Assembly (NCBI GenBank): GCA_032718475.1
Contig: JAUCBJ010001719.1
Span: 2,812-66,811 of the forward strand
Direction of reading: 5' to 3'
Length of the DNA: 64,000 bases
From: Nemertoderma westbladi
Taxonomy: Eukaryota > Animalia > Xenacoelomorpha
Part shown: positions 4,104 through 64,000 of the stretch, in pieces
Position numbering within the stretch: position 1 is the stretch's first letter
Layout of the letters: every line of letters starts with the position of its first letter
Program-made: the position numbers and the translations under genes
The notes under the pieces: model-generated
Told to the model about the DNA's origin: nothing
Databases searched by the model: none
What the model saw: the letters and a program-made list of their open reading frames with translations, nothing else

Positions 4104-7100
4104 ATGGCCCAAGAAAGTTTTACGCGTCAAATGGCTAGAACCGAAGCCTGGCAAGCGGTAAAGGTGGGAGAGATCGTCAAGTTCAACGGAGATGAGATGA
4201 AATGGTTACCTTTTATTGAATATTATAAAGATAACATACAGAACTCTGTGCTATCTAATGGAGAGAAGCTTAGATTCCTCATCGAGTGCTTGGAAGGATC
4301 TTCCAAGTTAATGGCGTTAAAGTTTATGATGGATTAAGACAAGTTTGGGATACACTAAACATCAGGTATGGTAATAGGAATAACATGGCTAGGTATTTGT
4401 ATGCGAAATTGGTAGCGCCACGAAAGTTTCTTAGCAGCGGGATTATAGAATTTTCCGATGAGATCCAGGATATTTGTAGACAATTAGATTGGCTAGGTAA
4501 GTCTCATGAGTATCAGAGTTCTATGGTTATTGGAGCTGTAGCATCTACCTTGCCAAAGAGTGGAGTAGGTACTCGTTGGGACAAAAGAGTTCTATATATG
4601 ATGGAACAACAACGAAGAGACCCTACCATGGCTGATCTCATGTCATTCTTAGATGGAGAGGTAAAATTACAGCTCCTAAAGCAGTCCAGAGAGAAGACAC
4701 CGGAAAATAAGGTAAGTGAAAAACCCGTTTCTAGGAGAAAGGTAACACCAGTGTGTTATACAGACGACGGCGAAAGCCAGACCTCTCAAGAGGAGAACAA
4801 CGGGAAAGACACCAAAAGATCTTACTATGTCAACAAAACACCTAAAGACGTAAGTAAATTTAAGTCTCGAACCAGTGACAGGAGAGAACAGGTAACAAAA
4901 ACTCCTCCTACGTCTCCCAAGAGAGTTCATGGAAGAAAGCCCGAGGAAAGAACGAGTGTGCACAACATTACCCAAGGTAAAGTATGTAACATCAAACCAA
5001 AATGTGCATTGTGCGACGGGCCCCACCGTTTAAGTGTGTGTGATGAATTCGGCGAACCTGTTACTCCGATGCGAGGTGTGCTAAGTGCGGCGCGAAACAT
5101 CATATCTTGTTGCACACCGAATTGGAAAGAAACAGCCGGAGTCAGGTAAGTGAGTCTGAACTACATGTCCAATTCAGTGATGTGAACGATACTGACCAAA
5201 GTTCTGAGATGGAAGGATTCTACACGGATGAATTCTCCGACGAAAATGAATCCTGTTATCTAATAAACACCGCAGTGTATCGAGCGCTTACGTATGAGAC
5301 CGAAACCGATAACGAAGCGCACCCGGTTATTCCTGACCGACAACCATCCTGGAAAGCACCAACTTCCAACGTCGGAATCCGGGAATTCCCCGTAGTTCAG
5401 CTAAGAGTCCATGGGTCGAGTAAGAGTTTTATAGTCAACGCACTCCTGGACTCCGGCAGCACAGGAACGTTCATCGATAAAGAACTAGCCGAAGACATCT
5501 TTGCAGGACAACCCAAGTTCCGAACTAAGTTGAACCTTTCAGGAATTATGCAGGTTTGGAAATCTACCGTAGCTACAGACTACTATGTAGGTGCGTTGTC
5601 CACTCCCCAAGACGAACTAGGAGAACACAGTATAAGGTCAGTAAAAATGGTGGTGATAAAGAACTTTGCTACCAGCCAAGTAGAACCTTACAACTGGGAT
5701 GAAGACGATTTTACCCAGCAATATAATATCCCTAGATTCAACACCGACTACTCAGGGGTGCAAATTTTAATCGGCCAAAATGCGCATGAGGCGCTTGAGA
5801 CATTAGAGAAACGACCTGCTCGACCGCAACCATTGCAAACTTATGCGGGAAGAACTAGAGTAAGTTGGTACTTCACTGGACCTTCCCGTAGAATGCTCAT
5901 GGAAAGATTACCCCCTGAACAAGTGCACCAGGTGAGTGAATGGGAAGAAGAAATCAGTGAGGGAGAAATCACACCTGAGGGAACACCATACTCCTCAGAT
6001 AACGACGATATTACCCAGCTATTTGACGAGGAAAATACGATAGACCTCCTCACTGAAAGTGAAGCTTGGAGAAACCAAGTGCACCTTTGCCATCTCATCC
6101 ATCATGGCGGACAACTCAATTATGACGATGAGCTAAATGAGGTGATAGATCGACATAATGCTAAGATTCGTGACGAACACGCCGTACGATTCTTTACTCA
6201 AGAAGCTGTAGAACCTAATTCCTACGACAAAGCACTATCAGTCAAGGAGGAAAGAGCCAAGCAGATCCAGGCAACGACTACACGTTTCCTTAGGGATCAA
6301 GGGAGGTATGAAATTGGTCTGCCATTTCGAATGCGAGAACCTAATTTTATAAATAACCGACCCTTGGCTGAGAAAAGAATCGCTCAACTACATCGACGTC
6401 TTACGGCAAACGCTTCAGCTAAAGAGATGTACAAGACACAGCTGAAGAAATTCATCGATAAGGGATATGCGGAGCGAGTACCAGAAGAAACACCCATAAC
6501 TGAGAGAACGTATTATTTAACGTTACCAAACCCGGTAAACCCAACGAAGTTCGGGTAGTATTTGACGGCTCCGCCCTCTACATGGGCCAATCCCTTAATT
6601 CGGAGTTGTTGCCGGGACCCAACTTACTCCAATCCTTGTTGGGAATACTCTTAAGATTACGGCAATATTCGATCGCCTTCGCCTCAGATATAGAAGGCAT
6701 GTTCTTACAAGTTAAGGCGCTGGATAGGGATCGAGACAGCCTGCGATTTCTGTGGTGGCCTGAAGGAGACCTCAGCCAAAAACCTGTGGAGTACTGGATG
6801 ACCATCCAGGCTTTCGGAATCATCTCGAGCCCCTCGAACGCCTGTTCAGTAGTGCGCACCACTGCTGATGACAACCGAGACACCTTCTCTAAAGCGGTTA
6901 TCGACAACATCAAACGGGATATATACATGGACGATAATTTAAAGTCCCTCCCATCGGTGGAAGAAGCCATTGATGTTGCCAAGGGAATGGTAGAGTGTTT
7001 AAAACGTGGTGGATTTCGACTAACTAAATTCACCAGCAACTCCCATGAGTTTCTGGAATCGATCCCGGTAGAAGACCAAGGAGTTAAAGATCTAGACCTA

Positions 7101-9803
7101 ATCAAGGATGATCTTCCAGAAACCAAGACGCTTGGTTTGAAATGGGACACGGAGAGAGATATCCTGTTTTTCCAGCAGCGAGATAATCCAGTTCGAACTA
7201 AACTGATTTGTCTAAGTATCCTGAGCACTTATTTCGATCCATTGGGAATCATTAGCCCAGTTATATTGGTTGCTCGGAGTTTAGTTCAACAAATGTGGCT
7301 TGAAAACCACTCGTGGGACGATCCACTTAAGGGAGAACTACTAAAGAAGTGGATGAAATGGGAAGATTCTCTATCATCCATCGAGAAATTTATGATTTCC
7401 CGTTCATATTTTGGTCAGTCATGTTCTTCCAATGTATTCGTATCAACTCCATGTGTTTGGAGACGCCAGCAATATGGGAATAGGTATAGTAGCCTACCTG
7501 AGGGTTGAAACTCCGGATGGAATTAAAGTTGCCTTGGTTACCTCTAAGGCCTTGATAAACAACAAGCTACGAGTTCCTCGAGTGGAGTTAAAAGCGGCTC
7601 TATACGCTACAGCCATCGGCCGGAATGTCACAGAACAGATCGACTATCCACTGGAGAAAACTGTCTATTGGACTGATGCTTTACTCGTTTTGGAGTATAT
7701 AACCAATGAAGTCTGTCAGTTCAGCGTCTTTGTTACCAACAGAGTAGCCGTTATACTTAGTCGCACTAGTGTAGATCAATGGAGACATTGCCCTGGGACG
7801 ATTAATCCAGCCGACATTGCCTCCAGAGGAGCAACTCCTCAAGAACTGGTAGACACTCCGGACTGGTTAGGTGGACCCGACTTCCTAAGTAAAGAAGAAG
7901 ATGAATGGCCTCCTCATCTTACCACGGCTGAGATTAGACAAGCCAAGGGAGCAGAGAAAGTCAAACCTAAAACCCGGACGAGTAAATCGAAGTTATTTAA
8001 ACCCGTGATAGATCTGTCTGTACTACATCTTTCCGGAGACGACGCTGTGGATCTAAACTTCCCCGCCACAAATAAGTCTGTTGTGGAAATCAGAGAGAGA
8101 GACTGGAAATCTGGAACACCAGACGTTTCGCAGGGACTCTCACCTCTCCTACAGAGGGCGATACATCACTATAGCTCCTGGAATAGGCTTTGTAAGGCCG
8201 TTGCGTATTTGAAGCGATGCTTCCATTATCACTACTCCAGGATGAAGATCACTAGTGATACCGCTCCACCGACATCTGTGCAGGTCCATGCTATTAAAGA
8301 TCTTCCCAAATATAAAATCTCAGATAGGTTTCTGACGGAGAAGATCAGTTACCAGGTGCATGAAGAAACCAATAAGCAGATACTGAGACTCCTGCAATGC
8401 TATGAAGATTCCGATAAGTATTTCCTGTAGTTGAGAAATCCACAGATGCGCTTAAGGGATCGTTTCTCTAGCACAATGATAGATGGGTTAATGTTGGAGG
8501 GAGACTAACTAATGCTCCATTATCCTTTGACACTAAGTTTCCCAAACTTATTAGAAATCTTGAAATACAAATCAAGATGATTGTAGATGTTCACAGTAAG
8601 CTTTACCATGCTGGTAGAGAACGAGTTCTTAGCGAAATTCGAACTCGCTATTATTTTCATAAACCCCGTAGAGCTCTGAACCAAGTTCTTAGGAACTGTA
8701 TACCCTGTAGGAAAGCATTCAGTAGGCCTTTAACACAGCGAGAGGTAGAATTACCTAGGGAGTGAGTAAGCTTCTATGAACCACCCTTTACTAATACCGG
8801 TGTGGATTTATTTGGCCCTATTGAAGTATATCGTGCCAGGACTATAGTCAAGCGATGGTGTGTCATCTTTTTCTGTATGACTTGTAGAGCGATCCATTTA
8901 GATATGGTGAACGATCTATCTACCAACAGCTTCATACTGAGTCTACACCGACAGATCGCTCGCTTTGGAACTAGCAACACTATGAGATCTGATAAGGGGA
9001 CGAACTTCATTGGGGCCAATAATGAGATCAAGGCTTACGTTAGAGATTGGAACCAAAGACAGGTGGACGATCAGCTAAGAGTAACAGCGTCTAGCTGGAC
9101 ATTCAACGCCGCCGACGCCCCTTGGTGGGGAGGAAGTTGGGAGAGATTAATAAGAAGCATGAAGACCGCATTTCACTTTATAGTGCCGTGCCGCGCGTAT
9201 CTCACCGACGAACTTTTGCGGACGTTAATGGAAGAAATCGCCGCCTATCTTAACGAAAGACCGCTTATGCCAGTCTCATCGAGTCCCGACTCCCTGGAAG
9301 CGCTAACACCCGCGCACTTCCTACTGAAGAAACCTGTAGCCATGCTCCCCCGATCGGAAATCACGGATGGAGATGAATACTGCCGACAAACTTGGCAACT
9401 TATGCAGTTATTATCCCGTCGTTTCGCTGACCATTTCGAAAAACATTATCTGCCCATGCTACAACTTCGAACCAAGTGGTTTGCGCAGCAAGAAAACGTC
9501 AGCGCCGGAGACATGGTCCTTATTTTGGAAACAGATCTTCCATGTAAGCGGTGGCAGACAGGTCGTATCATCGAGACTCATATCTCAGATGACGGTTTAG
9601 TGCGATCGGTAGAACTCGTCGTCATGCGACGTAACTTTAAGAAACCGGGAATTGTATTCGAAACACAGCAGCTCAATCGCCCAGTTGGTCGTTTATGTTT
9701 ACTGGAGAGAGACAGAGAACTGTCCGGAAACTATGGAAGGCAAGATACTCTTCCCACGACCACCTCCCTAATCCAACAGACATCTAGGGACTCCCCAACG
9801 TAA
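4104..9803 (+). pseudogene. BEL/Pao gag-pol, multiple frameshifts and stops
   Basis: Gag FNGDEMKWLPF/LSNGEKLRFL, protease ALLDSGS, RT DIEGMFLQV and YMDD, RNase H LHVFGDAS/PRVELKAA/WTD, integrase HAG..C..C, DLFGP, RSDKGTNF, GGSWER. Confidence 0.95.
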
Positions 9804-16592: not shown

Positions 16593-17820
16593 TGTAAAAG
16601 CTTTTGCGGATATAACCAGTCATTTTCTCCGCAATTAACTGTTTAGTTGTTTTAGCGGACATAACAAGCCATTTTCTCCGCAATGTACCCTGTAGGTGTT
16701 TTAGCGGACATAACAAGCCATTTTATGCCGCAATACGCCAAATACTCTAAATAGAGTGTAGTTTCAGATGACGAAATCTGTCAGCTGATTTGCTGTCGAT
16801 GTGGAACTTTCTTTGTTCAGGCTCGCTCGACCAATCAGAGCGATTTTCATTTTATTTGCACAGAGGCCTATGGGAAAACGCGCAATGCATTACGGTCTTT
16901 GTTTACCTTTCTGAGCGAGAACAACTGCTTGGGAATTCTTCTGTACTTCTGTGTTGGAAGTTTCAGACTTTGGCCAGCATTAGACGGCTTTGATTACAAG
17001 AACGTAAATCTATTATCTGCAAACCAAACTACCAACTGCGGTACCGGTACTACCGATACTGCACCTGTCAACTTGTCAACCGATCACCTGCACTGCGCAA
17101 CTGTGCAACAAACTGGTCAACTGGCTGACTATCACCGCATTATTTTACTTCTGTTTACTGTCTGTTATTAATGGTTATATGTTGATGGATATGTTGTTAT
17201 ATTTGGAGAATATCGATAAATAATCATAAAACCCCCAATCTTCTTGATTACTAAAGGTTAGAGGGACCGGTTACCGGTAGCAATTGCGACTTACATTACA
17301 GTGGTTTTAGTGTGCATCAAATGCTATTTCATAATCCCTACATGTGTCAGTTGCTATCCTCCTTATATATGATCAAATTCAGTGACGGTAGGCAGATCAG
17401 TGTGAAACAGTGTGAAGTCGTGTGCAGTAGTGTGACAGATAATAAAGCATCTCCTAAAGAATGCGCTATTTACGAAAATCAGTAGCCATCTCGTTGTGTT
17501 TAGTATAAGTCATAACTCTGTTTTATACTTAAAGCGCCACGTCCTAAAGGAACTGTTAATATTTCCTTGAAAGTGAATAATATTGTCAGAGATTATATAG
17601 TAACAATCAATCGAATAATACAGTAGGTCTGCAACGCAATAAGGTCAAAGCATCCGAATCCAGTCTCCCTTAACTGTGGGTGAATGATCGCGCATAGACT
17701 GGCTTCGGCTAATGTTACTTCATGTGCATTAAATAATTGCTATAGGCTAAAGTCGATTTATAAACAAGAGGACACCTAAAATTGGCAGGTTAAACTGCTA
17801 AAGGTCTGAAAGCGCGAACA
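16593..17820 (+). repeat. 3' LTR of BEL copy 1
   Basis: TGTAAAAGC...GCGCGAACA termini, preceded by GGGAGCGG as in copy 2; homologous to the other LTRs. Confidence 0.92.
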
Positions 17821-27500: not shown

Positions 27501-27935
27501 GGATCCTGGCGCGAAGGAACAGGGGCGTGTGGCGCGCATTTAGGATCCTGACGCAAAGGAACAGGGGCGTGTGGCGCGCATTGAGGATCCTGGCGCGGAA
27601 ATGGATGTCATGTACAGTAGCAAAATGCATTGGCATGGCAACATATCCAGCCACTCTAATTGAAATTATATCGGTCTACCAGTAGAGTCTATTTTTAAAA
27701 AGAGTTAGGCCTAGGCCTTAAAGATTTTCGCTCACTTCGGTCGCGTTTGTATATTATATGCCTGCCCACTGTACGCTCTACTGTGTCTACTCTTATTCAT
27801 CATTCTAATAACTTTTAATTTAAAAATTTAATGGTCAATCTTTCAATGGTTGGCGCGCTTTGAATGTCATGGCTGGCGCGCTTTTCGTTTAACCCGAATC
27901 CGTGTGGCGCGCTTTTTGTCAATATTCCATATAGG

Positions 27936-29780: not shown

Positions 29781-30514
29781 AAATAGATTTGGTGGGGTTG
29801 AAATGAACATAAGAACCCAGCGTTCATGTCAATAGGGCCTATTGACATTAGATGTCAATATTGACATGAAATAAAACATATCATTAAAATTATTACAAAC
29901 AACAATATACATTGGTTGGATTCAACAATATTTTAATTAAAATAGATATTCTCTTTACAAAAAAACATTTTCTACTTTTCAAATCACAATATATAAAAAA
30001 TTTATGATCAAAACATGTCAATATTGACATCATGTCAATTTTGACATGGAACATGTCAATATTGACAACATGTCAATATTGACAAAGTGCCCGACTGTAG
30101 AAGAATGATATTGAAAATATATTACTATGATATGATCCTAAGATATGGACCTTTAATAAAATAGAAACCGCACTGGAATACATTACGTTTTATTGATTGT
30201 ATTCCAGTTTAAAGTTGGCGTAACGGTCGTGACTGAAATGGACAAGCTTTTTAGAGACTCCTACACATTATAAATTTCTATCGAATTTACTGTACTTATT
30301 TAGCGTTACTTATGTCAGACTAACATGTTAATAGATAGAGTTTAAAATGAAATTAACAGTATGGCAATATAGTATCATTAGAGAATGTGGCAAACAATTA
30401 ACCAGCGTAACGGTCGTGACATAGTTTCGTAACGGTTGTGACATTATCGATTTTCACATAAATCTGAATTTCAAAAAATGGTAAGGTATTAGAGTTAGGT
30501 ATTGATATCGATTT

Positions 30515-44230: not shown

Positions 44231-44818
44231 AGTTGAATATCGATATCAACTGGAGCCAGGGCCTGGCATTGTAGGACCGCGGTCAGTATGTAAAATGTAT
44301 GTTGGTTGCAGTAGGTAGGCCTACGGCAGTAACAGTGCTACATAGTGCTCAGTTAATCAGCGGAAGCCAGCGGAAGTTAATACACTAATAATTTTCGATT
44401 CCGGTTTTAGGGCTTTTGGTATAACCATCGTCGAAAGCTCCATTTTAAAACGTGCTCTCCTGATCCTCTTTGATTAGATGATAGTTTCACGATCGTCGAT
44501 CTTTAGGGGAAGACAAGTTGATGGAAGGGGTAAAGGTTTGATGGGCAACCCGGAAAACCGGCGCCAACGCAAATTACGGTACTTAAAATATAGCTCTATA
44601 CAGCAGAATTAGCCTTCAGTAGTTCAACTGGTATGTATGTGTTGGATTACACTCCTGTTGCATGATGACAGACATTCATTTGTAAATAGGATCCAAACGT
44701 ATAGTTTGTCCTACGTAGTCACGTTTTGATTGCCCAACGCCGATACGTTTCTATATGTGCTATTATATCGAACCGTGTAGGTTGTCCAGTGGCGTCACGT
44801 TTCGTTTACCAAACACTG

Positions 44819-45969
44819 TGTAAAAGCTTTTGTGGGATATAACTGGCCCTTTTGCTTCGCAATCCAGTTTCCCTTAATGCGCTCAAATACTCTAAAGAAA
44901 AACTCCCTAACTCAAATGATGCAAGCTACCGGCTGATTGGCTGATTTGCTGTATGTATGGCCTCTTTGTTCTGTTCGATCAACCAACCAGAGCAAGGTCA
45001 ACCAAGCAGAGTGATTCATCCTGTGTGTTGGCCAAGGGCTGCAAAAACCCGAATAGTTCAGCATTTAGACATTCGTGGAATCTGTGGAATATGGAGCTCT
45101 GCCAATGAGAGCTTTTCCTCTTTGTGCTGAAAGCTACCTGCAACAGCTCACAGGGTTCAGTGTGTTGGTTTTTCCAGAGCCTAGAACATCGGCTATGGAG
45201 TTATTCTGAATTATTCCAACATTAGAACGACTTTAATTATAAGAACACATAACTGTTACCGTACGGTACCTACTGCTGTATTGCACATTATTTACTGCGA
45301 TTTACTGTTTGTTATTAATTGTATCAGTTGTTTACATATTGTTATTTGGAGAATAACGATAAACGATCAGAAACCCCGATCTTCTTGATACACTAAGGTT
45401 AGAGAGACCGGTTACATATAGCAATTGCGACTTATATTATCGTGGTTTGTAGTGAATTGAATGCTATTTTATAGGCCCTACAAATGTCGGTTGCTATTCT
45501 CTTTATATATGATTAAAATCAGTGACTATCGGCAATTCAGTGTGCAGCGGTGTGCAATAGTCTGTATGTGCTTGTCCGTGTAACAAAGCATCTCCTAAAG
45601 AATGCACCTTATGTGTAACTTATAATCCATTCCGTTGTGTTTAGTGTAAGCCATAGCTCTGTTTATATAGATAGAGCGCCACGTCCTAAAGGAACTGCTA
45701 ATATTTCCCGAAAGTGAATGATATTTGTCAGAGATTATATATTAACGATCAATCGAATAGTACGGTAGGCCTGCACCGCAATCAAATTAAAGCATCCGAA
45801 TCCAGTCTCCCGGGTATATCCAGCGGGTGAATGGTCGCGCATAGACTGGCTTCGGCTAATGTTGGATTTATTTGTGTCAAATACTTGTCATAGGCTAAAG
45901 TCGATTTATAACCTAGAAGACATATAGATTTGGTGGGTTAAACTGCCAAAGGTCTTAAAAGCGCAAACA
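44819..45969 (+). repeat. 5' LTR of BEL copy 2
   Basis: TGTAAAAGC...GCGCAAACA; about 7 differences from the 3' LTR. Confidence 0.97.
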
Positions 45970-45980
45970 GTAACAGTTAT
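45970..45980 (+). promoter_or_regulatory. Non-tRNA primer-binding site, complementary to own LTR 45249-45259
   Basis: GTAACAGTTAT is the exact reverse complement of ATAACTGTTAC. Confidence 0.85.
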
Positions 45981-46322
45981 AATTCTGATTGCAGTGTAGG
46001 CAATAAATACAGTTTACTATTGTTCTGATAAGAACAATAACGGTTATTGCTTCTTTATTGCCGTAAGCAATAAAGCTGAAGTACCGGTCGACCGGTAACC
46101 TGTAGGCCTAACTACCTAACCACCGGAACCGGTACTTACAGCAGTATACTGGTAGGTACATCAGTATTATTTCGATTGTGATATATTGTGTATATTGTAG
46201 GCTGTTAGGGGATTAGGGATTGATCACCCCTTATTCCTTTGCATGATTTACTTATTTCTGTCAGTTTTATTTACTAGTAGGCTAATATTGAGCAGAAGAC
46301 GTGTAAGCCTGCTCAGATCGTA

Positions 46323-46920
46323 CAGATAATTTGTAGGCTGGACTGTTGTCTGACTGTTGATAGGTCTGAACGGATTGCAGTGCATGTAGAGTGTATGTCC
46401 GATAAAGTGCCGGTTAGGAACGTAGGGGCAGCTAGAGCTGTAAGGTAAACCCCCCCCCCCCCCCGAAAGAATAAGTCGTACTACTAGGTTAGAACGCATA
46501 CTAACTAACCATTTCGGAGTCTGCATGTCCTGTAGTTTATTTAGGCTTGATAGTAGTCTGCCAGCGTTTGGTCTGTACTTTGTTTGTATAATCTGTACAG
46601 GTACCGTAATATTTCTCATTCAGATAATTTATAGGCTAGATTGTTGTCTGGCTGTTGTTAGGTCTTACGAGATTGTGGTGTGTGTAGAGTGTATGTCCGA
46701 TAAAGTGCCGGTTAGGAAAGTAGGGGCATCTAGAGCTGTAAGGTAAATCCCCCCCCCCCCCCCCCCCGAAAGAATAAGTCGTACTACTCGGTTAGAACGC
46801 ATACTAACTAACCATTTCGGAGTCTGCACATACTGTAGTTTATTTGGGCTTGATAGTAGTCTGCCAGCGTTTGGTTTGTATTTTGTTTGAGTAGTTTGTA
46901 CGGGTAGCGTAATATTTATT
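46323..46920 (+). repeat. Tandem duplication of about 298 bp in the 5' leader, each unit with a poly(C) tract
   Basis: CAGATAATTT... units at 46323 and 46621; the C-tract region is single copy, with only C5, in copy 3. Confidence 0.85.
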
Positions 46921-48252
46921 ATTCAGAGTTTATGCGATTATTCGCAACATTCATAACCCCAAGTTTATTCCTACAGTAATTGTGCTTGTTATACATACCG
47001 TTATAGTTAAATTAACCCCGGTACTACATCAGGGCTGCTTGGCATAGGTAAAGACTGGTGATTTTGTGCCCCGGTCACTCCAGCAGATGCCATGGTTCTT
47101 TTAGCTGTTCAAGTATTTTTAACTACTGATAATTTGTTGTACAAGTACTTGTACCTAATTTAGGGTTTAGTGTACAGTGCTTTCCGAAGGTAATTAGCGT
47201 GTAGGCAGTATATTTGTGTTGTAAAGTGGTTAATAGGCACGTTGGTTCTGGTAGACCGCGGTAATTAACTTCTAGGTAGGAACACTCCGTGATACATAAC
47301 CTAGTACTTATAGCGATACGGCTATAAGTCGTCAGACGGTGGTATTTTTCCTATCTGGACAACGCAGTATATTTACTACTACTTATTATTTTCAAATGCC
47401 ATAGTACTCTGTCCGTTGTAATAACCAGATAATCTAACCCTTTGTTAGGCTGGTTTGTAGACTTCTTGTAAAATTACCCTAAAAATTCGTACGTGTAATT
47501 TTTGTGTTTATTTAGAGATTGTAATCTCACCCCGAATTGTATGTAATTTGTAGTATTAAGTAACTTAGGTAAATTAGAATTATTTGTTTTAGTGTCCAAC
47601 AAGTAGCACTTCACTGAGAGCACACAGCTTCTGTGTGGTGACTCTTTCCCAGAAATAATAACATTTATTTCAAATATTGACAAAAACCCATTAAAACGGG
47701 TATATATATTATAAATCAACTCAAACGATTTATAAATAGTAGGCCTGCCATACAACAACTAGGTCTCAATATCAGTTGGACTACTGCTCAAATAACGGTA
47801 ATAAAGTAAGTTAAAGTAACCAAGTAACCCCTAAAATTCAGAAATTCAATTATTCTAAAATAATTGATATACCGGTATTTACAATAGGCTTATTATATTT
47901 ATTTCTATAAATTTAGGCGGCAATTATTCCGGTATTCTGTAATTAATTCTAGTCCATAATTATACTTATATATACTATAAGTGTAAGCTGTATACCGGTA
48001 TTCACGATAGGCCTATTATATATTTATATATATTTGTGCTGAAATTACATACCGGTATTCTGTGACAAACCTAGTCTGTAATAATACTTATATATATTGT
48101 AAGTGTATACCGGTATTCTAATATATTATATATATATCACGTTACACTGAGTAACAGTATCGGTAATTAATTACTAGGCTAACAGTGATACTGAATTACT
48201 AGACTTGCTTAAACTGTAATATAGCAGTAGGCATTCAACTGTACAAACAAAC

Positions 48253-51200
48253 ATGTCTGACTCAAAACGGGCACTGTCAGATAGTCTTTTGAAAGGTGTT
48301 AGAATGAGTCTTCGACTTGGACAGTGTCTTGAAAGGATAGAAGACGGAAAAGAAGGGGAAAGAAAAGTAGCAGCGGCAGAAGCGGAAAGAAAAGCGGCAG
48401 AGGCAGTGGCAGAAGCAGAACAGAAGGCGTCTGAAGCGACTACCCAACTAGAGATTGAAAGCCTTCAGGCGAAACAAGATTACTTGAAAAAACAAACCAG
48501 AAGACAGGGATTTGCCCCCTCCGATGAGGGTGATGTAAGAGATCCTGAAAGTGGAGGTAATAAATCTCGTTCAAGCGGACGTAGAAGAACGCCACACCGT
48601 CGGAGGTTGTCTGATTTCCCTCTTGGGGTGAGAGGGCGAATCTTGTATCATTCATTAGGTAATCTTGAACCCACAGACCAAATTATTACAGTAGAAAGAC
48701 TCCCTACTATAGTAGATGAGCCTGAAATAATTAGGGAGGTGGAGGTTGTCTGATTTCCCTCTTGGGGTGAGAGGGCGAATCTTGTATCATTCATTAGGTA
48801 ATCTTGAACCCACAGACCAAATTATTACAGTAGAAAGACTCCCTACTATAGTAGATAAGCCTGAAATAATTAGGCCTGTTCTCGAAGCCACCCCTTCGGT
48901 GATAGAGACACCTGTACTCCCAGAACCTACCTCTAAATTCCCTTTGCACAGCACGAAACTACCTGTGCCCAGTAGGACTGTTCCCGAGTCCGAACCCATC
49001 CCGGACGCCGAGCGAGATATCAAGAATTTATCGCCCGTCGTCTCTCGCTTGCCCGCTACTACGTTGGCGACTCCCGCTTCGGCGGTCGAGTGGGTAGCTG
49101 AGGGACGACGGGCGATGGGTCTCCTGCTCGGGCAGCTGAGGGAACATTGTAAATGTTCCTCCCAGCAGGTCCGGGAGTTGGAAGGGACTGTTCAGCAGTT
49201 AAAGGGAGCAGTAAGAGAGGGTAGGTTAGCGTTGCAAGAAGTGCAGCAGAGTATCGCGTCAGAACGTGATAAGTTAGTAAATTTACAAAAGGGTATACCA
49301 CCACCCTCTGTAACAATGTGTCAACCTGTTAGGTCTGAAGTATTTCATGCGCAAGGTGTGGAGCCTACACGCATCTATACTGCTAGTGAAGTAGAAACTC
49401 CTATAGTAAACCCTATTAAGGGTAATTATAAACCTGTTGACAGTGATATTCCATATAGACTTGATAATAATCCGCGAAATTTATATACCGATAACTCGAT
49501 ATTAAATAATACGATGGCCCAAGAAAGTTTTACGCGTCAAATGGCTAGAACCGAAGCCCGTCAAGCGGTAAAGATGGGAGAGATCGTCAAGTTCAATGGA
49601 GATGAGATGAAATGGTTACCTTTTAATGAATATTACAAAGATAACATACATAACTCCGTGTTATCTAACGGAGAAAAGCTTAGATTCCTCATCGAGTGCT
49701 TGGAAGGATCTCCCAAGTTAATGGCGTTAAAGTTTATTGGACATCCAGATGGATTAAGACAAGTTTGGGATACATTAAACATCAGGTATGGTAATAGGAA
49801 TAACATAGCTAGGTATTTGTATGCAAGATTAATGGCGCCCCGAAAGTTTCTTAGCAGCGGGATTATAGAGTTTTCCGACGAGATTCAGGAGATCTGTAGA
49901 CAGCTAGATTGGTTAGGTAAGTCTCGTGAATACCAGAATTCTATGGTTGTAGGAGCCTTAGCATCTACTTTGCCCAAGGGTGGAGTAGGTATACGCTGGG
50001 ACAAGAAAGTGTTATATATGATGGAACAACAATGAAGAGACCCTACCATGGCTGATCTCATGTCATTCTTAGATGGAGAGGTAAAATTACAGCTTCTAAA
50101 ACAGTCCAGAGAGAAGACACCGGAAAATAAGGTAAGTGAGAAACCCGTTTCTAGGAGAAAGGTAATACCAGTGTGTTATACAGACGACGGCGAAAGCCAG
50201 GCTTCTCAAGAGGAAGACAGCGGGAAAGACACTGAAAGATCTTACTATGACAACACAACGCCTAAGGACGTAAGTAAATTCAAGTCTCGAACCAATGACA
50301 GGAGAGAACAGGTAAGAAAAACTCCTCCCACGTCTCCTAAAAGAATTCACGGAAGAAAGCCCGAGGAAAGAACGAGCGTGCACCACACAGCACATGTTAA
50401 AGTAAGTAACATCAAGCCCAAATGTGTGTTGTGCGACGGGCCCCACCGTTTAAATGTGTGTAATGAATTCCTAAAGAAATCATTAAAGGATAGACGTGAA
50501 GTCATGTGGGATAAGCGGTTGTGTTATAATTGTCTCAGACGAGGACACCAATGGCGAACCTGTTACTCCGACGCAAGGTGTGCGAAGTGCGGCGCGAAAC
50601 ATCATATTTTGTTGCACAGCGAATTCGAAAGAAACAGCCTGAGTCAGGTAAGTGAGTCCGAACTACATGTCCAATTCAGTGATGTGAACGACACTGACCA
50701 AAGTTCTGAGATGGAAGGATTCTATACGGACGAATTCTCCGACCAAAGTTCTGAAATGGAAGGATTCTATACGGACGAATTCTCAGACGAAAACGAATCC
50801 TGTTACTTAATAAATTCCGCAGTGTATCGAGCACTTACGTATGAGAAGGAAACCGACAGTGAGCTCCCCCTAACTACTTCTGATCGACAACCATCTTGGA
50901 AAGCGCCAACTTCCAATGTAGGAATCCGAGAATTTCCTGTAGTACAGTTAAGGGTCCACGGACCTAAAAGGAGTTATATAGTGAATGCCCTCCTTGACTC
51001 CGGTAGCACAGGAACATTCATCGACAAAGAACTAGCCGAGGACATCTTTGCTGGACAACCCAAGTTCCGAACTAAGTTAAACATGTCAGGAATTATGCAG
51101 GTTTGAAAATCTACATTAATAGCGGATTATTATGTAGGTGCGTTGTCCACCCCCCAGGATGGACTAGGAGAACACAGCATAAGGTCAGTAAAAATGGTGG

Positions 51201-51897
51201 CGATAAAGAACTTCGCTACCAGCCAAGTAGAACCTTATAACTGGGATGAGGACGATTCCACCCAGCAGCTTAATATACCTAGATTCAACACAGATTACCC
51301 TGGAGTGCAAATACTCATCGGCCAAAATGCGCATGAGGCGCTTGAGACATTGGAGAAACGGCCTGCTCAACCGCAACCGCTACAAGCCTATGCGGGAAGA
51401 ACTAGAGTAGGTTGGTACCTTACTGGCCCTTCCCGTAGAACTCTCATAGAAAGGTCACCAAAAGAACGGGTATACCAAGTAAGCGAATGGGAAGCGGAGA
51501 GCAGTGAGGTAGACGACCCAACTGAGGGAACACCATACTCCTCAGATAATGACGATATTAACTCCAATGTAGATCAATGGAGACATTGCCCCGAGACGAT
51601 TAATCTAGCCGGCATCGCTTACAGAGGAGCAACTCCTTAAGAACTGACAGATACTCCAGACCAGTTAGGTGGACCCGACTTCCTAAATAAAGAAGATGAA
51701 TGGCCTCCTCATCTTACCCCGGCGAAGATTAGACAGGCCAAGGGAGCGGAGAAAGTAACACAACCACTCAATCGCCCAGCTGGTCGTTTATGTTTACTGG
51801 AAAGAGACCGAAAACTGTCCGGAAACTATGGAAGGCAAGATACTCTTCCCACGACCACCTCCCTAATCCAACAAATATCTAGGGACACCATAACGTA
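48253..51897 (+). pseudogene. gag-protease of BEL copy 2 with pol remnants
   Basis: Three BEL-type zinc knuckles (CVLCDGPHRLNVC, CYNCLRRGHQWRTC, CAKCGAKHHILLH), ALLDSGS; deletion junctions near 51565 and 51756; internal 139-bp and 45-bp duplications. Confidence 0.93.
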
Positions 51898-53540
51898 ACA
51901 ACATACGGAGTGGGTGTGTGACTATATTATTTTATATTTATTTTTATTATTTTATATTATGTATGTATTATTGTGTAATTTTATTATAATCGTTTTCTTT
52001 AATTTCATTTAGTAGAATGTTATTTTAGCGATTATTTAGTAGATTAGTGCAATATATTAGCGTTTATTACTTAATTACCTGTATATTATATATTTAGTGC
52101 GACGGCGAGAAATAATTCTTTTTCTCATTCCTTACTGTCCGTATTACATTATAAATACGTGACTACAGTAAGATGAAATCTCCGTACTTATTAAAGTACA
52201 ATAAAGCTCCTACTATATTTAAGTATTATTGGTAGGCAGAGTATTAGGAATGCAAAGTTCAGATCCTCGTGTCTCGGCTAAACCAAGCTCTGGGTAGACC
52301 TTGGAAACGACTTGCCTCTTCACACTGACATTGCTTCGTGCGATATTGCTCTCATACCGTATATTAAATAATACATATAGTAGCGTGATGTCCCTTTAAC
52401 AGTAGCGTAAAACGCAAAATAAATCTGTTAAACCCTTTGACCATCTGCAATTCTAGTCGATTAAGATATCGCGGCACCCACCGATATACTTGAAAGACAA
52501 AATTCTAGAATCAGTGGTTAACGTCCCCAGACAAGTTCTGGAATAAACTGGTGCCCATCCTAAATATTAATTATTAATATTTACAAAATCTGTCAAATTT
52601 TAGATCCTTTAAAATTCTAGTCGATTAAGATATCGTAGCACTTACCGATACTCTTAAAAGGACACATCCCTAGAATCAAGGATCCCAGTCCCCAGACTTG
52701 TTCTGGAATAAAATTGTGTCTGTTTAATATTAAATAATAAAATTACGGGAATAAATTTAAATTCATCTTTTAATGAATTTGATAAATTGTTATTTTATAC
52801 AATTTATAATATTCCCAAAATCCCATTAATTAATAGATCATGGGAGCGGAGATTCACCTATTAAGTGTATTAGTGCGCGAGAATCTCCAATATAGAGTCA
52901 ATAGCCGATAAAATTCATAAAATCATATATAAAGATGATATTGACCATTAAAGACTTACTATTAAATAGCATCCCAGATCTGTATGCATGGGAATTACCC
53001 TAATTCTACCGCTAGCTTTCCATAATGTCACCATAGCAACAACCACGCTAGAATTAGAAGCGAGTTAACAGAACAATAAAAAGCTTGCTCATTGACTAGC
53101 ATACGGAATAAATAGCACACCGCTAGTATCCAAGGATACATAATAACAACATGACATTCTGGAAGGCACTTGACTAACGGACAAATGACCCGAATGTGTG
53201 ATAGAATGTGTACCATTTGTGACAGTTACGTGGAATTTGTGCGTTTGTAGGTGAATGTTACTACTAAGGTGTGTTTACAGTAGCGATTCGCAATTGTGAA
53301 AGTAGCCCTAACTCTCCAGTAAGAACCTGAAGTATATCTAAGCCTTTGGGACGGACAGTGGAGTGACTCGTGCTGGTTGTTGTAGTCGTTGTGCAGCTAC
53401 GAAGTTGGCGATAGGCACATCGGCGAAAGTACACCAGCGCTGAGGATCTCGCACTGTCCGGGGGCAGAGAGGGGTAGGCAGCGACACCCGCTCGCCTAAA
53501 TATAAACTCATTATAATATGGATAAACTTATATAGCAGAT

Positions 53541-55061
53541 ATGATTGAGTTGATAGAAGATGATCTTGGTATCAGGGAGCGATATACTCTACCTTTACAA
53601 GCGTTTGTTGAAAGCTTGATACGCTGCGACGCTGGTCCAACTACTACGGAGGACGATGGTCGTTATATCTAACCGCCAATGTCCCGGGAGCAACTTGCGT
53701 GTGGGTTGGACTGTAGAAAATTCACCGCTCGCTATACGCATCGTAATGGTACGTATATGGACTTCTTAACTACTGGTCATCCTATCGACCTACACGATAC
53801 GAACGATATAGACACCAAAAGGGAAATGGTTTATTTAAATATCATACCCAGCGGAAGCGGAACGATAAACTGAGACTCGAACACGAAAATTCTATTCGAA
53901 ACCGACTCGAAAGTGCAGATGTTGAAGAGCCGGATAAACGCAGCGACTTCACCAAAATATCTGGAATTCTTGAGAGAAACATATCTCGATATTACCAGTC
54001 AACAGAATCTAGAAACTCGATATCCTCAAGGTATACATCATGACCGCATGGTAGAACTCAAACGGCTCTATTCCACTATGATGTATCTTACCGCCGATCG
54101 ATCGCTACCTGTTGTACCGGATAGCTTCGAACAGATGGAGGAATATTGTAAGCTGGAGAAAGATCACTCGCGTTTCCCCTACAAGACGTGCGTCTTTGGT
54201 ATTATTGCGATGAATGCCCTAGACCCAACCAACAAACGGAAAGACCTAAACATCCGCGGAGACGTTGCACTAAACACGGTTTTACTCGCTATACTGGCGG
54301 GAGTTTCGAGCGAAATTTGTTTGACGTATCACCTACGCTCGTTCGACTCAGACGATCCTTAAATAAACCAATGATCAGAGTTTCGGAATACTCGATCAGA
54401 CCTCCTCATTCCCTAGTGAGACCTCAGACTCTTGATCCTATTAGTATGACGGATCCTCCCGAGCTGTACTCACTGTTCAAAGATCTAGTGTTACCTGAAC
54501 AATTAGTCGGTGGCACCCCGGTTGTGGGCTTCCTAGATATTAGCCCATCCTACCTAGCCGGATTGGGACGCGGACATTTAATATCACCGTTTAACCCTTA
54601 CCATCGTCCCGGCTTAACACGATATAACCTGTCACCAAAGTGGCGGAGAGCGTTGTACCCAATGAGTTGGACGCTATTCTACAAAGATCAGAAAAGAACT
54701 TACGCTTGTTCAGATAAACGTAAATTGCACTAGCAAGTCCAAGCCGTAAACAAAGTAACTTTATCTCAGTTCGATTGGGAAATCCAGAATCTCTAAGAAG
54801 TTATCGAACTTGGACGACCCTATTCTCTGCGAGAGTTTTGGATGAACGTATCCAGCTACAAGCGGAGGAAAATCAGCTCGAGGAGAAGCATATCGAAACG
54901 GCGGATACCCCAACCATAATCCTACACCTTCTGATACAATCATATTGCACCCTTCACCCAGGAGTTATAGCCCTCCTAGTAAAGTGGCTCCCCCCAAAGA
55001 GAAAAGGACTCTTGCTAGCTCTAAAAAACTGCGTAAACGCCGTCCACGCAAGACAGACTAA
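53541..55061 (+). pseudogene. Accessory ORF of BEL copy 2
   Basis: MIELIEDDLGIRERYTLPLQAFVESLIR..., homologous to copy 1 with different frameshifts. Confidence 0.8.
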
Positions 55062-55139
55062 CTGTTTAGAGTATTTTTATATTTTAGAAACTGTGATTTT
55101 TTATATTTTATAGAATTAAATCCCATTTTCTGGGAGCGG

Positions 55140-56290
55140 TGTAAAAGCTTTTGTGGGATATAACTGGCCCTTTTGCTTCGCAATCCAGTTTCCCTTAATG
55201 CGCTCAAATACTCTAAAGAAAAACTCCCTAACTCAAATGATGCAAGCTACCGGCTGATTGGCTGATTTGCTGTACGTATGGCCTCTTTGTTCTGTTCGAT
55301 CAACCAACCAGAGCAAGGTCAACCAAGCAGAGTGATTCATCCTGTGTGTTGGCCAAGGGCTGCAAAAACCCGAATAGTTCGGCATTTAGACATTCGTGGA
55401 ATCTGTGGAATATGGAGCTCTGCCAATGAGAGCTTTTCCTCTTTGTGCTGAAAGCTACCTGCAACAGCTCACAGGGTTCAGTGTGTTGGTTTTTCCAGAG
55501 CCTAGAACATCGGCTATGGAGTTATTCTGAATTATTCCAACATTAGAACGACTTTAATTATAAGAACACATAACTGTTACCGTACGGTACCTACTGCTGT
55601 ATTGCACATTATTTACTGCGATTTACTGTTTGTTATTAATTGTATCAGTTGTTTACATATTGTTATTTGGAGAATAACGATAAACGATCAGAAACCCCGA
55701 TCTTCTTGATACACTAAGGTTAGAGAGACCGGTTACATATAGCAATTGCGACTTATATTATCGTGGTTTGTAGTGAATTGAATGCTATTTTATAGGCCCT
55801 ACAAATGTCGGTTGCTATTCTCTTTATATATGATTAAAATCATTGACTATCGGCAATTCAGTGTGCAGCGGTGTGCAATAGTCTGTATGTGCTTGTCCGT
55901 GTAACAAAGCATCTCCTAAAGAATGCGCCTTATGTGTAACTTATAATCCATTCCGTTGTGTTTAGTGTAAGCCATAGCTCTGTTTATATAGATAGAGCGC
56001 CACGTCCTAAAGGAACTGCTAATATTTCCCGAAAGTGAATGATATTTGTCAGAGATTATATATTAACGATCAATCGAATAGTACGGTAGGCCTGCACCGC
56101 AATCAAATTAAAGCATCCGAATCCAGTCTCCCGGGTATATCCAGCGGGTGAATGGTCGTGCATAGACTGGCTTCGGCTAATGTTGGATTTATTTGTGTCA
56201 AATACTTGTCATAGGCTAAAGTCGATTTATAACCTAGAAGACATATAGATTTGGCGGGTTAAACTGCCAAAGGTCTTAAAAGCGCGAACA
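55140..56290 (+). repeat. 3' LTR of BEL copy 2
   Basis: Preceded by GGGAGCGG, followed by TSD CACTG. Confidence 0.97.
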
Positions 56291-56295
56291 CACTG

Positions 56296-58292: not shown

Positions 58293-59519
58293 TGTAAAAG
58301 CCTTTGCTGAATTGCCCCGTTATTTTTATTATCTTTTACATTAAAATACTCTGTAGTTGATTTAATAAGTGTAAGAGACCGTATTATTGCTGTATCGGTG
58401 TTTTTAGAGGATCTAAGACCTATTTCCTCCGTATGTGTACTGTGAAAGGCATATTTTATGATTCTATGGCAATTCGTGACGCAAAGGGGTGATAGCTACT
58501 CTTGAACAGTAGTTACTATGACTACGGTTAACAGCTGACATTCATACGTGTTGATTTCCTTTGTTCTACGGCGTCTCTCAGTTCAGTCAGCCAATTAGAG
58601 CGTTTTTGTGGCTCCTTGTACAGAAAATTTCCGAGAAATGACGCAATGCCTATGTGCAGTGTTTACATTCAGTCCTGAGCCAAAGAAAGAACGGCTTGGA
58701 AGTATTTTGTGCTTTACTGTTTTTAGTCTTACACTAGTAGGTTTAATTACAAGGACATATATCCTTTAACTACCTGACTCATGGAATCACTGCTGACTGA
58801 TCATACATGCTGACTGCTGAAACATTGCAAACTCATAACAATCAGTGTTTTCATTGTTGTTTTATACTGCTATTTACTGTCAGTTCTTCATAATATGGTT
58901 GATGAATTATTATATTTGGAATAACGATAAATAACCCCGAAACCCAATATTCTTGATATACCGAAGGTAAGAGAGAAAGGTTACCAATAACGATTGTGAC
59001 TTATGTTAAAGTGGTTTGAAGTGAATCCAATGTTATTTGATAGACCCTACATGAGTCAGCCTGTGTTCCTTTTATATGTGACTAAAATCAGTGAAGATTG
59101 GCAGATTAGTGTGCAGCATTGTGTATGAGTGAGTCTGTTAAAGAAGCAATTCCTAAAGAATGCGCCATATATGTGAATTATAATTAAGCCATATCGTTGT
59201 GAGTAGTTTAAGTCATAACTCTGTTTATATAGATAAAGCGCCACGTCCTAAAGGAACTGTTAATATTCCCGAAGGTGAATAATATTGTCAGAGATTATAT
59301 AATACTGTCAGTCGAATAATACATTAGGCTTACATAGCAATAAAATTAAACCGTCGAACCCAATCTCCCGGGAATCTCCAGCGGGTGAATGGTCGCGCAC
59401 GGATTGGTTTCGACTAGTGTAGTGAATCAAATACTTGTCAAAGACTAAAAACTGATTTAATATCTAGAAGACATCTTAATTTGGTGGGTTAAACTGCCAA
59501 AGGTCTGAAAGCGCGAACA
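58293..59519 (+). repeat. 5' LTR of BEL copy 3
   Basis: TGTAAAAGCC...GCGCGAACA, homologous to the other LTRs especially in the 3' half. Confidence 0.92.
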
Positions 59520-59531
59520 TTAAAGGATATA
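59520..59531 (+). promoter_or_regulatory. Non-tRNA primer-binding site, complementary to own LTR 58758-58769
   Basis: TTAAAGGATATA is the exact reverse complement of TATATCCTTTAA. Confidence 0.85.
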
Positions 59532-61492
59532 GCTTCTTTGTTGCAGTAAGCAATAAAGTTGAAAGTACCGGTCAACCGGTAAACCTGAACGGTACATCTG
59601 TAGGTCAGTAGGCCCAACAGCTAGAACCGGTACTGCCGTATAAGTACACTAGTATTATTCGATTTGATTGTTGCATACCGGTAGGCTGTTTAAGGGATTA
59701 GGGATTGATCACCCCTTATACCTTTATATGGTTTACTTATTTCTGTCAAGTTTTATTTATTTGTAGGCCAGTATTGAACAGAAGGCGTGTAAGCCTGATC
59801 AGATAGTACAGACGATTTGTAGGCTGAGCTGTTGTCTGATTGCTGTTAAGTCCGAACGAATTGCAGTGTGTGTAGATCACCTACTAGATAATTTGTAGGC
59901 TGGATAGTTGTCTGGCTGTTATTAGGTCTGAACGGATTGCCGCGTGTGTAGATCATCTGTCCGATTAAGTACGATTAGGCAGTAGGGGCAGCGAACGCTG
60001 TAAGGTAATCCCCCAACTAAAGAATAAGTCGCACTACTGGGTTAGAGCGCATACTCCCTAATCATTTCGGAGTCTGCATATACCGTAGTTTGTTTAGGCT
60101 TGATAGTAGTCTGTCAGTGTTCGGTCTGTATTTTGTTTGAGTAGTTTGTACGCGTAGCGTAATATTTATTATTCAGAGTTTATGCGATTATCCGCAACAT
60201 TCATTCCCCAAGTTTGTTCCTACAGTAATTGTGTTTGTTATACATACCGCTATAGTTAAATTAACCCCGGTACTACACGGGCTGCTTGGCGTAGGTAAAG
60301 ACTGGTGATTTTGTGCATCGGTCACTCCAGCAGATGCCGTGGTTCTTTTAGCTGTTCAAGTATATTTAACTACTGATTGTCTGTTATATAAGTACTCGTA
60401 CCTAATTTAGGGTTTAGTGTACAGTACTTTCCGAAGTAATTATTGTAGACATTATATTTGTGTTGTAAAGTGGTTGATAGGCACATTCGATTAGCTCTAT
60501 TAACTTCTAGGTAGGAACACTCCGTGATACATAACGTAGAACCTATAGCGATACGGCTATAGGTCGTCAGGCGGTGGTATTTTCCTATCTAGACAACGCA
60601 GTGTATTTACTACTACTTATTATTTCAAATACCGTAGTACTCTGGCCGTTGTAATAACCAGTTTTCTAACCCTTTGTTAGGCTGGTTTGTAGACTTCTTG
60701 TAAAATTACCCTAAAAATTCGTATTTGTGTTTTTGTAAATTTTTGTGTTTATTTAGAGATTGTAATCTCAACCCGAATTGTACGTAATTCGTAGTATTAA
60801 GTAACTTAGGTAAATTAGAATTATTTGTTTTAGTGTCCTATACGTAACACTTCACTGAAAGCGCACCGCTTTGTGTAGTGATTACTCCCCAGAAATAATA
60901 ACATTTATTTCAAACATAGACAAAACCCATTAAAACGGGTATATATATTATAAATCAAATCTAACGATTTATAAATAGTAGGCCTACCATATAACAATTA
61001 GGTCTCAATATCAGTTGGACTACTGCTTAAATAACGGTAATAAAGTAAGTTAAAGTAACCAAGTAACCCTACAGTTCAGAAATTCAATTATTCTAAAATA
61101 ATTGATATACCGGTATTTACGATAGGCCTATTATAATATTTATATTTGTGCTGAAAGCATACCGGTATTCTGTAATTAATTCAGTTAATAATTATACTTA
61201 TATATACACTATAAACTGTAAGCTGTGTACCGGTATTCCCGATAGGCCTATTATATATTTAGATATATTTGTGCTAAATTTATACCGGTATTCTGTGATA
61301 AACCTAGTCTGTAATAATACTTATATAGTTATATATACTATAAGTATACCGGTATTCTAATATATTATATATATACTACGCTACATTGAGTAGCAGTACC
61401 GGTAATTAATTATTAGGCTAGCAGTTAATACTGAGTTACTAGACTTGCTCAAACTGTAATATAGCAGTAGACATTCAACGGTATACATAGTC

Positions 61493-64000
61493 ATGTCTGA
61501 TACTAAGCAGAACCTGTCAGACAGTCTACTAGATACAACCGAGAGTGAAGTGACAGCAGAGAAACCGCATAAGAGGGATGCCATTGACATCTATCTGTCA
61601 GACTATCAACGTTTTTTAGGTGATGACGAGTTGAGGAGAAGGTTAGAGGGACTTAGCCCTAATAGTGAAGGAACCAAGCTTGTGTTGGATGCCATCGATG
61701 TGGATAGGTTAGCTGCGAACCAAGCTAAATTCGATGAACAACTCCGCATCGCTAGAGAAAGGGAAGAACAAGTAAGGAAAAAGCGTATAGAAGACAGAAA
61801 GATAGCAGCAGTGGCAGAGGCAGAAAGAAAAGCGGCAGCGGCAGAGGCAAAAGCGGCAGCGGCAGCGGCAAAAGCGGCAGCAGTAGCGGAAGCAGAACGA
61901 ACAGTGGCGGAAGCAGAACGAACAGAGGCAAAAGCAGCAGCAGTGGCGGAAGTAGAACGAAAAGCGGCTGAAGAGATCATCCAACTGGAGTTGGAAAATC
62001 TTCAAGAGAAGCAAGACGACTTCAGTAAACAGTTAGCAGCTAGTAATATGCAGATGATGAATCGATCTACTCCCAAACGACAGGGATATACATCATCTGA
62101 GGAAGGCGATACCACCGACACTGAAGGCGGAAGAAATCGATCTCGTCTAAGCAGACGTAAAAGAACATTCCACCGGCAGAAATTGCCTGATTTGCCTCCA
62201 GCTGTTAGAAGGCAACTAAATAACACCAAAGTAGGTAGTACAGAACCCACAGACCAAATAATTACAATAGAGAGACTCCCTACTATAGTAGATGAGCCTG
62301 AAATAATTAGGCCTGTTCCCAAAGCTACCCTTTCGGTCGTAGGGACGCCTGTACTCCCTGAACCTACTTCCCAATTCCCTTTGCACAGCACTAAGCTACC
62401 TGTGCCCAGCAGAACAGTCCATGAGACAGTGCATACCCTGGACTCCGAGCGAAATATTCCAGATTTGTCGCCTGTTGTCCCTCGTCCGCCCGCTACAACG
62501 TTGGCGACTCCCGCTTCGGCGGTCGAATGGGTGGACGAGAGACGACGGGGGATGGATCTCCTGCTCGGGCAGATGCAGGAGACTGTCCAACAATTCAAGG
62601 GCACAGTAAGGGAAAGTAGGCTAGAGTTGCAAGAAGTGCAGCAAAGTATCGCGCTTGAACGCGATACCCAAAGAGGTGAGGTCTCTATAGGGGTGTCGCG
62701 AACAGGCGGCGGCGGGCTCGTGAGGGTCTGGGGGCACGTTAAATCTTCAAGTATAGTGCAAGGGAGTTACTGAAGGCCCTCGTGTCTTGCGAACCATGAA
62801 TTGACATGGTGCCGTGGTACCGTCTAGTCGGCCTGTTGCCGTACTGCCAGTCCTGTACACAGTAGGGGTGGTGGCATAGTGTGATCTGTGGTTTGTGTGT
62901 GTACGTAGTATACGTGAGTGTGTGTATGGCCACTGCGAGTGAGTGTGGGAAACCTTGCCGGTTGGTTCAGTCGCCGCCGGTTATTAGTAGGACCATATCT
63001 TTACTGCGCCCCAGCATACTTTGTGCACACAAAGTTATTTTGCCCTGACGGCAAAATAAGGTACTCTCGACTCTTTAACAGTCGATACAATTTTGTCCCC
63101 TCTGATTTTGTCCCCGATTTTGTCTATTCCCGATTATGTCTTCTGTGTGTGCATGGTATGTGTCCGATTTTGTGTCTACCGTAGTGTACTCGATTTCGTG
63201 AGCATCTATTGAGTACATGTGTACAGTGACTGGTAAGTGGTGACTTGTTCTTAGCTTAGCTTTTAAGCTAGTCAGTATTGTTGGTGGAACCGACTTCCCC
63301 TCAATACTGCCGGCGAGGCGGGTGAAAACGGTCAATATTCCATGTTGGGTAGCGCAAGCCCACATGGGACAAGACCGTCGGTTTGGCTCAAGGGCGACCT
63401 TGATGCTCGATCGCTATCGACTGGTCCACCCGCCGGTTGACTCTCTGAGTTGGCTCAATGTACAGTCAGGCCACAGTAAGTTGACAGTAGGCGAACTTTG
63501 AGTCGCCGTTCGGCTACACACGACGAGCTGTGCCGGTGTGATCGGGGGATTGAAAATTGAACCCGGGAAGCATCGGGCTACCCTCCGGCCCGGTCTGATA
63601 AAAACGGAGTCGGACTGGCCCCAAGGGTAGTGGGACAGCGTCCGCCTCATGGGTGCGCCTCGGGGAGGAGCCCAGAAGGACGCAAGCGAAATTAGTAAAC
63701 ACCCAAAAGGGTATACCACCACCCTCTGTAACAATGTGTCAACCCGTTAGGTCTGAAGTATCTCATGCGCAAGGTGTGGAGCCTACACGCATTTATACTG
63801 CTAGCGAAGTAGAAACTCCTATAGTGAACCCTATTAAGGGTAATTATAGACCTGTTGATAATGATATTCCATATAGAACTGACCATAATCCTAGAAATTT
63901 ATATACCGATAACTCGATATTAAATAGCACGATGGCCCAAGAAAGTTTTACGCGTCAAATGGCTAGAACCGAAGCCCGGCAAGCGGTAAAGGTTGGAGAG
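61493..64000 (+). pseudogene. gag of BEL copy 3, interrupted by a 1-kb insert
   Basis: Ala/Glu-rich coiled-coil N-terminus; matches copy 2 gag to about 62665 and resumes at about 63690. Confidence 0.9.
62666..63689 (-). mobile_element. Probable DIRS/Ngaro-type tyrosine recombinase 3' fragment
   Basis: Minus-strand frames give GPVRLRFY..SPMLP, HTG.ARR and GGWTS in the order of YR motifs CPV..L..Y, PLF, HS.R, GRW.S. Confidence 0.45.

Follow-up and report, generated by a model that had tools for sequence, protein, structure and literature searches.

Self-priming of reverse transcription has so far been described in other groups of retrotransposons, and we report here a likely case in the BEL/Pao superfamily. 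The C. elegans element Cer7 reportedly encodes its own primer, and the Tf1 primer is said, in the title of a paper, not to be removed. According to the accessible text of PMC7175516, the first 11 bases of Tf1 pair with its primer-binding site (PBS), and RNase H makes its cut between base 11 and base 12. Self-primed Ty3/gypsy elements named in the available portions of three sources are Tf1 and Tf2 of Schizosaccharomyces pombe, Tj1 of S. japonicus, and the Tf1/sushi and Tcn1 groups (PMC7175516, PMC4600332, PMC5341516). For plant Tcn1, the TAR lineage, Houba and Osr-1, the last three of them Ty1/copia, the available part of PMC6317226 predicts self-priming from an LTR complement of at least 10 nt located 0-5 bp past the LTR. 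The self-priming lists in the accessible parts of PMC6934838 and PMC3601003 hold Gypsy-type cases only. In the ICTV description, Belpaoviridae are primed at an 18-nt PBS by tRNA-Arg or tRNA-Gly of the host, have LTRs of 0.2-1.2 kb, and replicate in a poorly understood way (PMC8742986). No report of self-priming in BEL/Pao was found in the literature searched, which lay outside subscription journals, Repbase notes and supplements. In their available parts, a BEL/Pao survey (PMC3118150) says nothing on primers, the Sinbad paper (PMC554778) nothing on a PBS or tRNA, and PMC8220671 nothing on self-priming.

The window, the whole 64,000-nt stretch of Nemertoderma westbladi DNA analyzed here (GCA_032718475.1, contig JAUCBJ010001719.1; coordinates are window positions), contains three related LTR-element copies on the + strand, as demonstrated by self-comparison (Table 1). 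The family is BEL/Pao (Belpaoviridae) by its Pol. Copy 1 encodes, with the expected composition and order, DUF1759, a weak Asp protease, RT (YMDD), Peptidase_A17 and DUF5641, and the best 120 homologs listed are BEL/Pao polyproteins of 40-47% identity, with fish, corals, echinoderms and a clam among the named hosts. Its Pol is not of the Gypsy type expected for the Tf1/sushi group (Ty3/gypsy chromoviruses). An RT tree built without references for the named clades (Sinbad, Suzu, Tas, Pao, BEL, Dan, Flow) gave no clade assignment; in it, the window RT sits on a long branch (2.04), surrounded by elements of fish, corals, echinoderms and molluscs. Public DNA contigs from a single organism contain the family in abundance. 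It matches the ICTV description of Belpaoviridae in domain set and order, in a short purine tract and in LTRs of 1.15-1.23 kb, at the top of the range; it departs from that description in having no 18-nt tRNA PBS, a leader of ~2 kb before gag, and a 3' region of >3 kb with broken frames. This integrase-to-3' LTR region, at 52600-55110 and 10500-16514, has broken extra frames without a Pfam match.

Copy 2 spans 44819-56290, and its ends are set by a pair of TG...CA LTRs with 7 differences in 1151 nt and by the 5-bp target duplication CACTG. RT and most of RNase H/integrase are missing from it; together with the near-identical LTRs and the target duplication, this indicates that copy 2 is probably young and moved with the aid of a helper. 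Copy 3 begins at 58293 and continues past the window edge; for the 1023-nt insertion in its gag (62666-63688), no terminal repeat and no second copy were found in the window. Copy 1 contains a GC-rich Gypsy-type RNase H/integrase fragment (12291-14829) that lies between the two units of a direct duplication of 892 nt (11399-12290 and 14830-15721; 98.9%). Elsewhere, the window holds a 3.8-kb tandem segmental duplication (19417-23214 and 24569-28358; 99.2%) with 12-bp minisatellites of 35-90 copies, a 170-bp tandem repeat of ~7 copies (30498-31630) and a 49-bp satellite of ~50 copies (40981-43455). Open frames without a Pfam match at 3-1502, followed by an AT-rich stretch and a purine tract, may belong to a different LTR element, as its extra 3' region. 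Positions 2329-2400 look tRNA-like by eye (A-/B-box-like words), are not called by ARAGORN or Rfam, and are perhaps a SINE head. No tRNA genes or Rfam matches were found in the window.

Table 1. Positions of the features of the three element copies within the window.
Feature	Positions	Strand	Remarks
Copy 1 gag-pol remains (DUF1759, protease, RT YMDD, Peptidase_A17, DUF5641)	4274..9803	+	broken by stops and frameshifts
Copy 1, 3' LTR	16593..17820	+	only LTR of copy 1 inside the window; 5' LTR and PBS outside
Copy 2, 5' LTR	44819..45969	+	1151 nt; 99.4% identical to 55140-56290; CACTG at 44814-44818 and 56291-56295
Copy 2 candidate self-primer	45249..45259	+	11 nt; exact complement of 45970-45980
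Copy 2 PBS	45970..45980	+	directly after the copy 2 5' LTR
Displaced PBS-like unit, copy 2	46037..46047	+	a duplication-like insertion has moved it 67 nt away from the LTR; context matches that of the copy 3 PBS at 37/44
Copy 2, 3' LTR	55140..56290	+	short purine tract before it; primer segment at 55570-55580
Copy 3, 5' LTR	58293..59519	+	1227 nt, TGT...ACA; start TGTAAAAGC and end common to the other LTRs; 3' LTR beyond the window
Conserved block just before the primer segment	58729..58758	+	30 nt; 68-77% identity among three subfamilies vs 52-53% in the rest of U3
Copy 3 candidate self-primer	58759..58769	+	11 nt; exact complement of 59520-59530
Hypervariable spacer right 3' of the primer	58770..58872	+	length by subfamily 41, 103 and 137 nt; identity 27-50%
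LTR arm of predicted second long-range helix	59306..59326	+	pairs with leader 59649-59668; found post hoc
Predicted U5 hairpin near LTR end	59480..59501	+	folds in 4/4 window LTRs despite substitutions
Copy 3 PBS, non-tRNA type	59520..59530	+	adjoins the LTR without a gap
Predicted 9-bp hairpin right after the PBS	59536..59558	+	copy 2 counterpart after 46047
Copy 3 gag 5' region, Ala/Glu-rich	61460..62773	+	homologous to copy 2 ORFs with DUF1759; interrupted by the insertion 62666-63688

The 18-nt site for host tRNA-Arg or tRNA-Gly of the ICTV description is absent from copies 2 and 3, both of which lack TGG at distances up to 8 nt from the LTR. In copy 3, TTAAAGGATATA at 59520-59531 abuts the LTR end (...GCGAACA, 59519) and matches 58758-58769 exactly as its reverse complement, which confirms a sequence-only reading that had seen the copy 3 LTR followed by a complement of its own segment. 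The copy 2 primer segment, ATAACTGTTAC, is present in both LTRs and is the complement of GTAACAGTTAT. That reading had also placed the two segments in the same context, and the 14-mers upstream (at 58745 and 45235) do match at 11/14 positions. The four differences it counted between the 11-mers are likewise real, three of them transversions, and all four are mirrored in the PBS; change at the same 4/11 positions with matching letters is expected at ~4e-5 under independence. Two of its figures hold for copy 3 only: the twelfth pair (58758 with 59531) is absent from copy 2, leaving a common core of 11 nt, and the distance of ~750 nt (750 nt from segment end to PBS) is 710 nt in copy 2. Extension of the duplex beyond 11-12 bp was not found. 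This within-family covariation is one subfamily comparison, made on the two 5' LTR-PBS pairs seen, and the homologous segment of copy 1 (17006-17016) is a third primer variant.

That reading argued that one tRNA cannot explain both PBSs. Neither PBS has TGG, and cross-pairs fail: the copies' own duplexes have energies of -11.7 and -10.3 kcal/mol, and the crossed duplexes -0.5 and +0.9 kcal/mol. The polarity suits priming. The 3' base of the segment pairs with the first base past the LTR, so extension would copy U5. As in Tf1 and its Ty3/gypsy kin, insofar as the available parts of the sources describe them, the PBS lies beside the 5' LTR and complements a segment of the element's own LTR, no tRNA site is present, and the length is the 11 nt of Tf1. 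Unlike Tf1, the family belongs to BEL/Pao and encloses a loop of 710-750 nt. The complement also conforms to the rule of at least 10 nt at 0-5 bp on which the accessible text on TAR, Houba and Osr-1 relies, although those are Copia elements of plants, and a splice-junction primer goes unmentioned for them in that text.

Related BEL/Pao loci, 15 in all, were obtained from a scan of prokaryote genome bins. The presence of these animal-type retrotransposon contigs (L003-L017) in a reference collection's bacterial genome bins points to contamination from hosts, and they presumably represent animal host DNA caught in the bins. The ten with an LTR end and leader were tested (L003-L008, L010, L011, L014, L016; RT identity to the window 40-46% or less), leaving out four with coding sequence only (L009, L012, L015, L017) and one whose 5' LTR was not found (L013). 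Nine of these ten have a Pao peptidase domain; L016, scanned for the gag-region ORF only, gave no match. All ten lack TGG within 8 nt of their LTR end, and nine have a self-complement of 11-12 nt at 0-8 nt past the LTR; these nine come from 6 assemblies and include the close kin L005 and L008. The self-complement is contiguous in L010. In the other eight (L003-L008, L011, L016), it forms only across a GT-AG intron of 77-1022 nt within the LTR, predicted from motifs only. The most distant relative, L014, has a self-complement of only 5 nt in the 176 nt of LTR available. A spliced primer was also sought in the window's own LTRs and rejected, with best matches of 3 and 5 nt. Two further mirrored changes separate L005 and L008, and all 11 primers differ from one another. 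The proposal of self-priming thus fits both the window and its relatives: TGG is missing at this distance from all 12 elements examined, 11/12 have an own-LTR complement of 11-12 nt, and the controls are clean.

In those controls, none of 132 LTR-by-foreign-PBS pairs reaches 11 nt (3 reach 10), and beyond offset 9 an 11-mer complement occurs at 1 of 4260 leader positions, an unrelated match in the copy 3 leader. For L004, L006, L007, L011 and L014, the LTR ends were chosen by visual inspection, in part once the match was known, and the end of L016 is uncertain, with offsets up to 8 allowed for it; the positional control limits the resulting bias. Markov-simulated LTRs contained an exact 11-mer PBS complement anywhere in 5/20000 (copy 2) and 18/20000 (copy 3) trials. 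These frequencies, the homologous position of the segments and the two controls leave a negligible probability that the pairs are chance matches in AT-rich sequence, for which the single unrelated complement in the copy 3 leader could be cited. Outside the relatives, a pattern scan of metagenome contigs returned 2 chance matches with no flanking similarity, and three pattern scans of viral contigs returned no match.

Comparison of the LTRs of the three subfamilies (copies 1, 2 and 3) demonstrates that U3 is barely above chance, at 52-53% identity against a shuffled baseline of 48%. The conserved block just before the primer segment may be a core promoter element or a degenerate splice acceptor. 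The primer segment itself is identical at 7/11 positions in all three pairwise comparisons, and the rest of R/U5 (~670 nt) at 74-80%, so that conservation in the primers does not exceed that of the sequence around them. Conservation breaks directly after primer nt 11. In contigs aligned to the copy 1 LTR, 11 of the 15 listed joints (34 in total) start at 17015-17021, the primer 3' end, and the depth of run X1 over this LTR falls from 24275 to 34 before returning to 13919. Downstream of the primer, all three LTRs retain a splice-donor-like AAG|GT(A/T)AGAG (17257, 45398 and 58967); given the leader of ~2 kb to gag, this site may serve a subgenomic mRNA.

For an RNA that extends from the primer to 12 nt beyond the PBS, the primer-PBS helix has a predicted probability of 0.98-0.99 in each of the two copies. 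In copy 2 the value is 0.0 with at least 40 nt past the PBS (7-8 kcal/mol short) or 15 nt upstream, and in copy 3 it is 0.0-0.01 with at least 60 nt upstream. RNAalifold on the two copies misaligned the primer. The loop of 710-750 nt in copies 2 and 3 compares with 44-252 nt in the relatives. The predicted hairpins and helix (Table 1) may represent a U5 stem-loop and U5-leader pairing, with unstable global folds in copy 2; for comparison, a U5-IR-like stem has reportedly been found in Tf1, to judge by a paper title. The second LTR-leader helix has -17.4 kcal/mol in copy 3 and -14.7 kcal/mol, with G-U pairs and bulges, in its copy 2 counterpart, and it is cross-compatible between subfamilies, unlike the primer duplex. 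The primer-PBS duplexes contain no G-U pair, while neighboring helices do, although the search was for exact Watson-Crick matches and the absence is therefore partly built in.

Since the 5' region holds other conserved helices, the pairing might instead have a structural or regulatory function in the RNA (as a packaging, translation or splicing switch), with the element using another primer, such as an internal tRNA fragment; Copia elements with half-tRNA primers do exist. We consider this unlikely. The offset of 0-8 nt, the length of 11-12 nt and the priming polarity are constant in 11/12 elements, the PBSs all differ so that one host RNA cannot serve them, and the ordinary helices nearby tolerate G-U pairs, bulges and cross-pairing where the primer duplex does not.

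The position of the segment within the transcript bears on which copy of it would prime. A CCAAT box at -147 to -175 is common to the window LTRs, which have no common TATA box at -30, and a TATA-like word at -11 occurs in copy 2 alone. That word would place the transcript start just downstream of the segment. Self-priming would then draw on the 3' LTR copy or on a second co-packaged RNA, a variant compatible with a contiguous segment present in both LTRs and with an in-cis fold that is not robust. It appears slightly less probable still than a purely structural helix, because the TATA-like word is absent from copies 1 and 3 while the CCAAT box is common to all, and because the eight relatives that need intron splicing downstream of promoter motifs point to the 5' copy. 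In L003, L005 and L008, a TATA motif and an initiator motif separated by ~30 nt precede the donor by 70-97 nt, so that the primers of these loci look internal to the transcript, unlike that of Tf1. For the window family, it is possible but rather doubtful that the RNA begins with the segment itself, as it does in Tf1.

We conclude that the family most likely primes minus-strand DNA, by analogy with Tf1, with an 11-nt piece of its own RNA and not with a tRNA. The transcript would start at or upstream of the segment, which would fold onto the PBS. A nuclease, by analogy with Tf1 the RNase H of the element itself, would then cut 3' of nt 11, and we regard it as somewhat probable that this cut frees the 3'-OH of the primer. 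Strong-stop DNA would end at the cut and jump to the 3' repeat, which would explain a hypervariable spacer starting right after the segment. Plus-strand synthesis would copy the retained primer, and any change in the LTR segment would be written into the PBS of descendants. Such copying would produce fast drift with strict complementarity. This drift, the transversions (3/4) and the decayed displaced unit of copy 2 lead us to favor, as the probable course, a PBS re-copied from the primer over stepwise compensation. The displaced unit forms 9 Watson-Crick pairs, 1 G-U pair and 1 mismatch with the copy 2 primer and no longer tracks it.

While the 67-nt duplication-like insertion in the copy 2 leader marks a site prone to rearrangement, it is very improbable that the complement is a by-product of reverse-transcription fold-back or template switching that rewrote the PBS region without a role in priming. 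The element would be left without any primer site, the 11-nt length is constant across distant elements, and the similarity of the insertion to primer-upstream sequence is not above chance. The last result (330 and 322 of 2000 shuffles) also led us to reject the insertion as a read-through copy of that sequence. Within the self-priming reading, a wider account is quite possible, and we offer it tentatively: a broad aquatic BEL/Pao branch may have swapped tRNA priming for a self-primer of exactly 11 nt cut from inside its own RNA, usually joined when the host splices out an intron in the LTR (in the present family it is contiguous, at a distance of 700 nt), with the PBS rewritten in each round of replication and primer and site drifting as a subfamily-private lock and key.

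If self-priming is correct, tRNA-independent priming would reach the third LTR superfamily, one that ICTV describes as tRNA-primed, and a distant lineage would share the 11-nt solution of Tf1. A primer that is internal or spliced would need a processing route that Tf1 does not. The subfamily-specific primer/PBS pairs offer a natural test of PBS inheritance from the primer. Annotation tools that require a tRNA site would misjudge such elements. Subfamily-specific pairs of this kind would also release the elements from silencing by PBS-directed tRNA fragments.
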